From IMG/VR virus record IMGVR_UViG_3300033075_001536, positions 1-64,000 of that record: DNA of 64,000 nt. One strand, given 5' to 3'. Origin of the DNA: a virus (Duplodnaviria > Caudoviricetes). The translations under genes were made by a program, and so were the position numbers. A model generated the notes under the pieces. It was not told the origin of the DNA, did no database searches, and was given only the letters and a program-made list of their open reading frames with translations. Below are positions 21,034-59,833 of this stretch, piece by piece; position 1 is the first letter of the stretch; each line of letters begins with the position of its first letter.

Positions 21034-21078
21034 TTTAGTATATATTAAATAGTGATCTTAAAAATCAATATATAGAAT

Positions 21079-34163: not shown

Positions 34164-34536
34164 AGTAAAGTGTTAAATATTTTTGTGTGAAGTAATCATC
34201 TCCATCATCTGTTGAGAATCCTCCAAATGTCCATCCATCACCAACAATTCTATCTTTTGATTCAATAGAGGTGGTCATTAATTCTGCTAGATTTTCAAAA
34301 TCTTTTTCCAACTCATCATTATCTGAATTACCATAGATAATTTTAATGGATAGAGAGAGGTATGGGGGATGTCCTTTAACATCCGATAAAGTACACTCAA
34401 CTATAATCTCTGTATATCCTAAATCTAAAATGTCTTGTAAATATTCTTCTAGATTTGGAATTTCCTTTAAAGATCTATTTGTTTTATAGTCTTTAAATGT
34501 TAATCGATTAAAATTTTCAAATAGTTTAATTTCCAT
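34147..34536 (-). CDS. Hypothetical protein of the expanded domain family
   Basis: MEIKLFEN; YLQDILDLGY; SKDRI. Confidence 0.7.
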   Translation of the reverse strand: MEIKLFENFNRLTFKDYKTNRSLKEIPNLEEYLQDILDLGYTEIIVECTLSDVKGHPPYLSLSIKIIYGNSDNDELEKDFENLAELMTTSIESKDRIVGDGWTFGGFSTDDGDDYFTQKYLTLYFGKQK

Positions 34537-34571
34537 TAAATCTATATATTAAGTATTTTAATATATAAATT

Positions 34572-35018
34572 ATGTCTAAAAAAGTAGATAGGTTATCCCA
34601 AATTGTTCCAGAAGTTTTTCCCAATATGGTTCGTACCTATAATGGGTTGTTATACGATGGAAATGGAAATTTAATAACAGTCTTATCCCAATTATCATAT
34701 AAAGTTTACACCTGTCTATTAACACAAAATGCTACATCAGACCCAACAGTTGTTGTCTTAGAAAATACAATCGGTGATATAAAATGGATAAGACATTCGA
34801 GTGGTGTATATCATGCATATTTAATAGATGCTTTCCCAGAAAATAAGACTTTCTATTTTTCACAAGCTACACAAAACAACACACCTGATAACGTTTGTGT
34901 CTATATGTCTAGAGGAAATAATGATATAATATCTATATCTACTTTATGGCAAGGATCTGGTGAAATTGATGGTTGGTTATTGAACACTCCTGTTGAAATA
35001 AGGGTTTATAATACCTGA
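34572..35018 (+). CDS. Putative virion structural (beta-rich) protein
   Basis: YKVYTCLLTQ..VLENTIG..PVEIRVY composition; AATATATA 34560-34567. Confidence 0.5.
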   Translation: MSKKVDRLSQIVPEVFPNMVRTYNGLLYDGNGNLITVLSQLSYKVYTCLLTQNATSDPTVVVLENTIGDIKWIRHSSGVYHAYLIDAFPENKTFYFSQATQNNTPDNVCVYMSRGNNDIISISTLWQGSGEIDGWLLNTPVEIRVYNT

Positions 35019-35197
35019 GATCCCTCTTGATTTTGCTCTAATCCATTCAAATATTCTTGAACTTTGTCTTTGTGAATAATTTCATCGGACCATTTGTAAG
35101 AGGTTCCTTTTTTTCTAGCTACAATTACCTTGACCCAATCTTTGGATCCTTCTTGTGTCTTTCTACCGGTATTTGCGTTTTTTGATACTTTTGCCAT
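35006..35197 (-). CDS. DUF4295-family protein (bL38-like ribosomal protein)
   Basis: MAK start, EGSKDWVKVI, SYKWSDEIIHKDKVQEYL match the Bacteroidota DUF4295 pattern as recalled; size fits. Confidence 0.65.
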   Translation of the reverse strand: MAKVSKNANTGRKTQEGSKDWVKVIVARKKGTSYKWSDEIIHKDKVQEYLNGLEQNQEGSQVL

Positions 35198-35210
35198 AAT
35201 TTCTTATATA

Positions 35211-35801
35211 TTAATTTTTTTCAAACTCTTTAAAACTTTCCACATGTTGAAGTTGATATCTTTCCTTCATTCTATCAAGAACCCCATTAATTTGTGAGAG
35301 TATATTGAGTTGTTTTTTATTTAGTTGACGAAGTTCAATAAGTTTTGAAACAATAAATTTTGTCTCATTAAAATATTTTGTTCTAAATTTATCCGAAGCA
35401 GTTGGGTGATCAGATATATTTTGAAGTCTATCACACAATTTAATTAAAAGTGCACCATCCGACATATTAATCATTTTATGTAGAAGATAATTTGCTTTTC
35501 CAACTGATTTAATTTTTTTGTCCGAGGATGAAAGTTCTTGTACAATATCAGCAATTTCTTTTCCAAACTCTTTTAACAAAACTTCATAGGTCACATCATC
35601 AACATCCTCTATTGAATCATGGAGTAAAGATGCGGCTCCTAAAATTGGATTGGTATCTACTCCCTTTAAAATTTGAAAAACTTTACGAACATGTCCATCA
35701 AAATAGGACATTTTTGTGAATTTTCTATTTACACCATGATGGGCTTTAATTGCAAAGTCCCAAGCTTTCTTTTCTAAGTCTGTAATTGGTTTGACTGCCA
35801 T
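35211..35801 (-). CDS. HD-domain small alarmone hydrolase (SpoT-HD/Mesh1-like)
   Basis: FAIKAHHG..RK...Y...H, LLHDSIED, FGKEIADIV.ELS, IKLCDRLQN. Confidence 0.85.
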   Translation of the reverse strand: MAVKPITDLEKKAWDFAIKAHHGVNRKFTKMSYFDGHVRKVFQILKGVDTNPILGAASLLHDSIEDVDDVTYEVLLKEFGKEIADIVQELSSSDKKIKSVGKANYLLHKMINMSDGALLIKLCDRLQNISDHPTASDKFRTKYFNETKFIVSKLIELRQLNKKQLNILSQINGVLDRMKERYQLQHVESFKEFEKN

Positions 35802-35852
35802 TAACTATATATTTATTTAAAGATACGGAAAATTTTCTTTAATATATAAGAG

Positions 35853-36146
35853 ATGATGTCAAAAACCGAAATGGATGAACTTTTTAAATCAGGTAAGAAA
35901 TTATACTCACCTTTGATTAAATTAGTTTATTTACCAGCTGCTGAAAAAGAGATAATTATATCTGCACCAATACGGACATTTAAAAGAGCTGTAGATAGAA
36001 ATAGAATTAAAAGACTCATTAGAGAATCTATCAGAAAGATGGAAATTGGTAAATATCATCTAGCTATTATCTATATTGGAACTAAAGTGGAATCATTTGA
36101 AAATATAAAAGCTGAATTAGAAAAAATTATTCCTAGAATAAAATGA
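35853..36146 (+). CDS. rnpA: RNase P protein component
   Basis: LFKSGKK and RNR motif FKRAVDRNRIKRLIRESIR; 97 aa, basic. Confidence 0.9.
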   Translation: MMSKTEMDELFKSGKKLYSPLIKLVYLPAAEKEIIISAPIRTFKRAVDRNRIKRLIRESIRKMEIGKYHLAIIYIGTKVESFENIKAELEKIIPRIK

Positions 36147-36715
36147 AATATTTGAGGAAATTTAATGAAGCAATTATGACTTCTCTTGACAAAATAAAAT
36201 CGGAAATTGATGATGTTTCTTATATTTTAGAAGATGAAAATCTCAATGTGCGCTCTTTTAGAAGGGGCTCAGAATATGTTGTTATTAATATAATAAACCC
36301 CGAATTAAACACCAATGGATTTGTAAATGCTCCAGGATATGTTCCCACCCCAACTAGATGGGATAAACGTGGATACCTCAAAAGAAGTTGGTTAAAATCA
36401 TTAGCCTTTAACGATGCTTTCGTTGAATTTATCGATCGTGTTGATGAAATTTGCAAAAAGAATGAATATGTTATTTTTGTTAATGGGTGTTCAAGTAGAT
36501 TTAAAGGGGATGATGAGATTGTAAAGTATTATAATTTTGATGAAATGTATATTGGTTCAAAAAATAGACCATTTACTCACATTGAAACTTTTATTGATGT
36601 TAAGAAAGCTATTAGAAATGAGCATAGATGGGCATATCCTGGAAAAATCGATAAAGGTATTAAATGGATAAATAAAAATATAGTTTATCCAGCAGCGGAT
36701 CTTATTGGAATTTAG
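36143..36715 (+). CDS. YILEDEG-family protein
   Basis: MKYLRKFNE; EIDDVSYILEDEN; FVEFIDRVDE. Confidence 0.75.
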   Translation: MKYLRKFNEAIMTSLDKIKSEIDDVSYILEDENLNVRSFRRGSEYVVINIINPELNTNGFVNAPGYVPTPTRWDKRGYLKRSWLKSLAFNDAFVEFIDRVDEICKKNEYVIFVNGCSSRFKGDDEIVKYYNFDEMYIGSKNRPFTHIETFIDVKKAIRNEHRWAYPGKIDKGIKWINKNIVYPAADLIGI

Positions 36716-59793: not shown

Positions 59794-59833
59794 ATTTTTT
59801 ATATATTAAAATTCATAAATCAATATATAAGTA

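Follow-up and report, generated by a model that had tools for sequence, protein, structure and literature searches.

The ribosomal protein bL38 is found mainly in Bacteroidota and was discovered and named in 2020. It corresponds to the family DUF4295 (PMC7797042), and its published architecture is a beta-hairpin packed on a helix (PMC11851116). On the ribosome, bL38 extends the beta-sheet of the uL6 C-terminal domain and touches H95 (the sarcin-ricin loop) and H97 (PMC11851116). It stabilises the labile uL6, raising its Tm by 12 C, and promotes the entry of uL6 into the 50S subunit, and when bL38 was depleted 50S assembly stalled at particles without uL6 (PMC11851116).

The ribosomal proteins known to be encoded by viruses include bS21, bL12, bL9, bL31, bL33, bS6, uS9, uS15 and others (Mizuno et al. 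2019, PMC6375957; for phage bS21, PMC9723584), and the 2019 survey reports 14 of them (PMC6375957). The main text of that survey lacks the term "L38", and no bL38 figures among the proteins it names there. The word "phage" is likewise absent from the bL38 assembly paper (PMC11851116). We found no report of bL38 in a virus in the literature searched, and none of the DUF4295 papers found there was on phages.

Here we describe a bL38 homologue in a large T4-like phage. Like the cellular bL38 of solved ribosomes (F. johnsoniae 70S, 7JIL chain 4; P. gingivalis, 9I5T/9I5V chain 15), the phage protein is small and basic, starts with MAK, has the common layout of tail, hairpin and helix, and keeps K23, Y34 and V46. 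In contrast to the cellular copies, it is detached from rpmB-rpmG-ftsY and lies behind an alarmone hydrolase gene, and it has a shorter turn, Trp36, a polar C-terminal extension and a lower charge. It resembles the described virus-encoded ribosomal proteins in several respects: it is a lone, small surface ribosomal protein taken from the host lineage, purifying selection acts on it, and its carrier is a large-genome aquatic phage. Judged by its sequence, it joins their class. However, the known role of bL38 is in subunit assembly, as a uL6 chaperone, and not in initiation or factor binding.

The phage record and the bL38 locus

The window, meaning the whole stretch of DNA that was analysed, comprises the first 64 kb of a 170,678 b IMG/VR virus record with an estimated completeness of 78%. 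The record carries genes for topoisomerase II, a ClpP-like prohead protease, DNA polymerase, helicase, RNR, UvsX and a T4-type RNA ligase. The C-terminal end of a gp23-type major capsid gene (record 170445-170678) is severed by the record end, and this 78%-complete record lacks most of the structural module. The record is that of a large, uncultured, T4-like freshwater phage. The viral record, the phage genes on its flanks and the related phage-like contigs described below agree with the original prediction that the bL38 gene is phage-borne. The features of the locus are collected in Table 1.

Table 1. Features at the phage bL38 locus (window coordinates).
Feature	Position	Strand	Description
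bL38/DUF4295 homologue (phage rpmL-like gene)	35006..35197	-	ATG start, 63 aa (63 codons)
AATATATA box of bL38	35205..35212	-	7 nt before the ATG; 2-nt overlap with the HD stop codon
HD_4 small-alarmone-hydrolase-like gene	35211..35801	-	196 aa; directly upstream of bL38; Pfam 2.3e-12
AATATATA box of HD gene	35806..35813	-	4 nt upstream of the start; kept in related phages L006 and L009
rnpA (RNase P protein)	35853..36146	+	97 aa; divergent; PF00825 2.1e-13; TIGR00188 41.8 bits (cut-off 38.35)
AATATATA box of rnpA	35841-35848		own box
Convergent 148-aa ORF	34572-35018		its 3' end overlaps the bL38 3' end by 13 nt (35006-35018)

Several other features of the record were observed. Peptidase genes matching phrog_4191 (E 1e-68 to 1e-74) occur as three dispersed paralogues at record 78544-79761, 145644-146705 and 166449-168023, and a tRNA-Cys lies at record 94325-94396. 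In the window (1-64000), no tRNA was detected by ARAGORN and no RNA family by Rfam at the gathering threshold.

Homology to ribosomal protein bL38

The 63-aa ORF had been predicted from the letters alone to encode a DUF4295-like protein. The HMMER search against Pfam gave a match to PF14128/DUF4295 with an E-value of 9.3e-6, in which protein residues 13-50 aligned with profile positions 9-47 of 47, but the score of 25.8 bits was just under the curated gathering cut-off of 27. Such scores are not exceptional, as 16 of the 61 DUF4295-positive genomes in a sample of 121 Bacteroidota genomes were also below 27 bits. The Pfam model thus under-detects divergent bL38, which is likely under-annotated. 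In the same sample, a DUF4295 match at E <= 0.001 was obtained in those 61 genomes only.

Further searches bore out the homology. An HMM built from 75 extracted cellular bL38 copies, nearly all of which were shown to lie inside an rpmB-rpmG-rpmL operon, matched the phage protein with 74.7 bits (E 2.4e-25). A tblastn search of the record with a Chitinophagales bL38 query returned the ORF as its sole match (E 1e-15, 61.5% identity over 52 aa), and a six-frame search of the whole record gave a DUF4295 match at this ORF and nowhere else. A profile of 19 close-family sequences reached the bL38 chains of two solved ribosomes: 9i5t_15 (7.3e-7), the bL38/DUF4295 chain of the P. gingivalis ribosome, and 7jil_4 (2.6e-5), deposited as "50S ribosomal protein L38" of the F. 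johnsoniae ribosome. These chains were reached with the family profile only, and no bL38 chain came up when phmmer was run on PDB sequences with the phage protein alone.

A search of 5.8 billion proteins gave 18 clusters, 17 of which carried a precomputed PF14128 match. The invariant or near-invariant columns of the bL38 family (M1, A2, K3, K23, Y34 and V46) are intact in the phage copy, which shares 58-68% identity with Chitinophagales copies and about 31% with Flavobacteriia-type copies. The ORF is a true homologue of the Bacteroidota ribosomal protein bL38 (rpmL, DUF4295).

The searches of virus collections gave no further copy of the phage protein. No match to it was found by tblastn in 50,697 GenBank phage records, the IMG/VR scan with the close-family alignment gave no further viral relative, and PHROGs held no family for it. 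Megablast of the 12 kb around the gene also gave no match.

Cellular relatives, phylogeny and host

A scan with one genome per species gave 390 relatives, the best of which (58-63% identity) were from freshwater Chitinophagales MAGs. We kept 80 cellular bL38 loci, and bL28 and bL33 were directly upstream in all 74 that had at least 700 nt of upstream DNA. This arrangement and the published assignment (PMC7797042) confirmed the statement in the original prediction that DUF4295 follows rpmB-rpmG in Bacteroidota and is bL38. The operon context was not found in the phage, where the flanks are the HD hydrolase gene and the convergent ORF, and no bL28, bL33, uL6 or bS21 gene was found in the record (about 78% complete). 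The operon position belongs to the cellular locus and not to the protein, and a captured gene is expected to lack rpmB-rpmG.

The clusters from the protein search were of two kinds. Five (P0001-P0005) were of the phage type, with 72-95% identity to the window copy, and came from phage-like contigs of several samples. The more distant clusters, at 50-68% identity, were cellular. The closest cellular relative (P0006, 68% identity) is followed by ftsY in an rpmB-rpmG-DUF4295-ftsY setting, and the same setting was found for P0007 and P0008, whose contigs carry Bacteroidota type-IX-secretion genes.

The six phage rows of a 120-sequence bL38 tree formed a single clade with an SH-aLRT support of 98 and a long stem of 0.40 changes per column. 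Its sister was the cellular P0006 (support 90). The phage clade was nested in a lake Chitinophagales group, itself within a Chitinophagales/Saprospiraceae set supported at 99. The deeper branching order is soft because the tree has only 58 columns. The phage copies were shown by this tree to share a single origin.

The composition of the phage was similar to that of these relatives, with a GC content of 30% compared with 31-35% in the nearest cellular contigs. GGAG or GAGG occurred in only 3 of the 226 upstream regions (-20..-4), which were about 85-90% A+T. Since Bacteroidota ribosomes are Shine-Dalgarno-blind (PMC7797042), this scarcity is expected for a phage that they translate. From these sequence characters we infer a freshwater Chitinophagales-type Bacteroidota as the host.

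Linkage to an alarmone hydrolase gene and conservation

The ORF had been described as clustered with an alarmone hydrolase and rnpA, and both neighbours were identified (Table 1). The product of the upstream gene is of the HD_4/RelA-SpoT hydrolase type, and its best solved relatives are MESH1/HDDC3 and bacterial small alarmone hydrolases (3NR1, 5VXA and SAH structures). Like these small alarmone hydrolases, it is a single-domain HD_4 protein.

The HD_4 gene was directly upstream of bL38 in all four contexts examined (window, P0001, P0003 and P0005). The contigs of P0001 and P0003 also carry rnpA, T4-type RNA ligases and a PQ-loop protein near bL38, and the distance between rnpA and bL38 in the relatives was 1-2.5 kb. 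The gap from the HD gene to bL38 in the relatives was 9-31 nt (L006:6100-6151, L009:6890-6933). No terminator-like hairpin was found in 34400-36300 of the window.

Among bL38, HD and rnpA, bL38 was the best conserved, with identities between the window phage and L009 of 95, 77 and 74%, respectively, and between the window phage and L006 of 78, 53 and 56%. Comparison of the bL38 genes of three phages over 51 alignable codons gave dN/dS values of 0.026-0.133 with dS of 0.9-1.5. The phage bL38 was shown by these codon comparisons to be under strong purifying selection.

Upstream signals

The motif AATATATA occurred 43 times in the window against 14.4 expected, and none of 100 shuffles reached 43. 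Across the record, the motif stood within 30 nt of the start in 65 of 226 crude gene calls, where about 1.6 were expected. Its start position peaked sharply at -12/-13 from the ATG, leaving 4-5 nt between the box and the start codon. The motif (window examples 635-644, 21039-21074, 34543-34567, 35806-35848 and 59800-59829) often took the form TTAATATATA, and it marked the heads of apparent transcription units and divergent gene pairs. Many of the large ORFs that bear the box had no PHROG match, and the box was absent before all five genes checked for it (topoisomerase II, RNR, helicase, DNA polymerase and prohead protease). Should AATATATA act as a -10-like promoter element, transcripts would have almost no leader or none at all.

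The original prediction had given bL38 its own AATATATA site. The box does exist there in the window, but in the related phages L006 and L009 it is kept before the HD gene and absent before bL38. What is conserved is therefore a unit of two genes, HD and bL38, and the window bL38's own box is a local addition. The box of the HD gene is likely the control element of this unit.

Two further observations concern these signals. An HNH/homing-endonuclease gene (phrog_559, record 81839-82921) has its own AATATATA box and adjoins the UvsX-like recombinase gene. The topoisomerase II and helicase genes have CTATAAATAAA about 5-13 nt before the ATG (upstream of window 11012 and upstream of record 133288-134955); CTATAAATAAA resembles the T4 late-promoter core TATAAATA and may be a second promoter class.

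Predicted fold, phage-specific features and complex prediction

An AlphaFold2 model from a 58-row alignment had a pLDDT of 72.6 and showed a disordered basic tail (1-20), beta-hairpin strands (21-30 and 33-42) and a helix (43-61). We overlaid this model on solved structures. The P. gingivalis bL38 chain 9i5v_15 was the top VIA-align row, with an rmsd of 1.2 A over 32 of 34 residues and a Z of 2.8, which alone is not significant. In Foldseek against the PDB, the P. gingivalis bL38 chain ranked second (prob 0.89, TMt 0.75, E 1.1), and there was no match at E <= 0.001. These structural statistics are weak because the domain is tiny, and we take the fold as consistent with bL38 and not as independent proof. 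The modelled tail, beta-hairpin and helix are consistent with the bL38 architecture.

The phage copies showed several features of their own. The hairpin turn was 2 residues shorter than in most cellular copies, and 1 residue shorter than usual in some cellular Chitinophagales copies. Residue 36 is Trp in the phage bL38 and Phe or Tyr in the cellular copies. At the C-terminus, the phage copies are lengthened by a variable, polar stretch of up to 8 residues, which was modelled as a continuation of the helix. The net charge of the phage bL38 was +3.6, about half that of the nearest cellular copies (+6.6 to +7.6), with a pI of 9.5 compared with 9.8-9.9 for cellular copies, whose charge ranged from +5.5 to +7.6. 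With this lower net charge, the phage bL38 could bind rRNA less well or behave differently.

Prediction of a complex between the phage bL38 and a Chitinophagales uL6 was graded as weak support, with a score of 0.59 against 0.02 for the best of 3 controls, and may reflect likeness to the similar complex solved in 7JIL and not binding by the phage copy. The mark used for such predictions was passed by 58 of 80 complexes with a solved structure and by 2 of 110 mismatched pairs, and the passes at scores of 0.60 or less were only 7 of those 80 and both of the passing mismatches. The prediction runs had a contact agreement of at least 87%, and the pLDDT of the partner was at least 61.

Discussion

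We consider it probable that the ORF is a functional phage gene, derived from a Chitinophagales-type rpmL, whose product acts like cellular bL38 during infection. The rpmL gene would have been captured alone, without rpmB and rpmG, from a freshwater Chitinophagales-type Bacteroidota host, and a lineage of large T4-like phages would since have kept it beside the small alarmone hydrolase. The phage bL38 would join host uL6 by adding to the beta-sheet in the C-terminal domain of that protein, would stabilise it, and would enter the 50S subunit together with it, beside H95/H97. Large-subunit assembly would then continue as host bL38 synthesis falls. Binding of host uL6 and support of 50S assembly are, we infer, the most likely activities of the phage protein.

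The alarmone (p)ppGpp halts the synthesis of rRNA and ribosomes. The alarmone hydrolase, expressed along with bL38, would remove (p)ppGpp, so that this synthesis could go on, and with the RNase P protein of the phage the two would make up a module sustaining translation capacity. As an alternative to (p)ppGpp removal, the HD neighbour might act against tRNA-pyrophosphorylating defence toxins. As a counterpoint to the whole proposal, a phage may need no new ribosomes in one infection cycle.

The original prediction had suggested that the phage may remodel host 50S subunits late in infection. The known biology of bL38 points to a role in assembly and uL6 stabilisation and not to the remodelling of finished subunits. 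In a further reading, which we regard as unlikely, phages of Bacteroidota would intervene in ribosome biogenesis, beyond translation initiation: the phage protein, co-expressed with the alarmone hydrolase from their conserved pair of genes, would take over the chaperoning of uL6 in 50S assembly, and its extended C-terminal helix by the sarcin-ricin loop would give phage-marked, altered large subunits. The phage bL38 might instead be a decoy or inhibitor that binds uL6 but keeps the pair out of the 50S subunit, or alters the surroundings of the sarcin-ricin loop, so that host assembly is blocked or redirected. The hairpin turn shortened by 2 residues, the polar C-terminal extension, the charge of +3.6 against +6.6 to +7.6 and the stem of 0.40 would fit such a divergence, and the stalling of 50S assembly on bL38 depletion (PMC11851116) marks this step as a sensitive point. 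However, the core residues of the whole family are intact, one-residue differences in turn length also exist between cellular copies from Chitinophagales, and the conserved partner gene encodes an alarmone hydrolase, which promotes rather than blocks ribosome synthesis. Moreover, those virus-encoded ribosomal proteins that have been tested to date did enter ribosomes (PMC6375957). Inhibition of this kind seems quite improbable to us.

A non-ribosomal job in the phage, for instance binding phage RNAs as a cofactor or partnering the HD hydrolase, would account for the conserved linkage to the HD gene, for rnpA lying nearby in three phages, and for the loss of the operon partners bL28 and bL33 with no uL6 found in the record; the published discussion also stresses the plasticity of bL38 (PMC11851116). 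Yet bL38 is the most conserved of the three genes and keeps 58-68% identity to cellular bL38, and this high conservation fits a conserved host partner better than a phage-specific partner that is free to co-evolve. No data point to another ligand, and we give such a change of function little credence. The gene might also have no function in the phage, being cellular contamination, the product of a chimeric assembly, or a recent passenger drifting to loss, as could be suspected of a tiny gene in a metagenomic assembly. Against this, the order of HD and then bL38 recurs on contigs that are independent of one another and stem from several samples and assemblies. The gene is flanked by phage genes, all phage copies group in one clade with good support, and dS is near saturation with dN/dS of 0.03-0.13. 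We regard a gene without phage function as scarcely credible.

The preferred reading, a phage gene that acts like cellular bL38, bears on both the protein and its carriers. Stabilisation of uL6 and its incorporation during 50S assembly is the only demonstrated role of bL38 (2025). The described viral ribosomal proteins are mostly exchangeable proteins of mature ribosomes, whereas bL38 is an assembly helper. As a natural variant, the phage bL38 could serve to probe the bL38-uL6 interface, and it is a phylogenetic marker pointing to the host lineage (freshwater Chitinophagales). The conserved association of a phage bL38 with an alarmone hydrolase suggests that ribosome production is protected or steered by some large phages of Bacteroidota.
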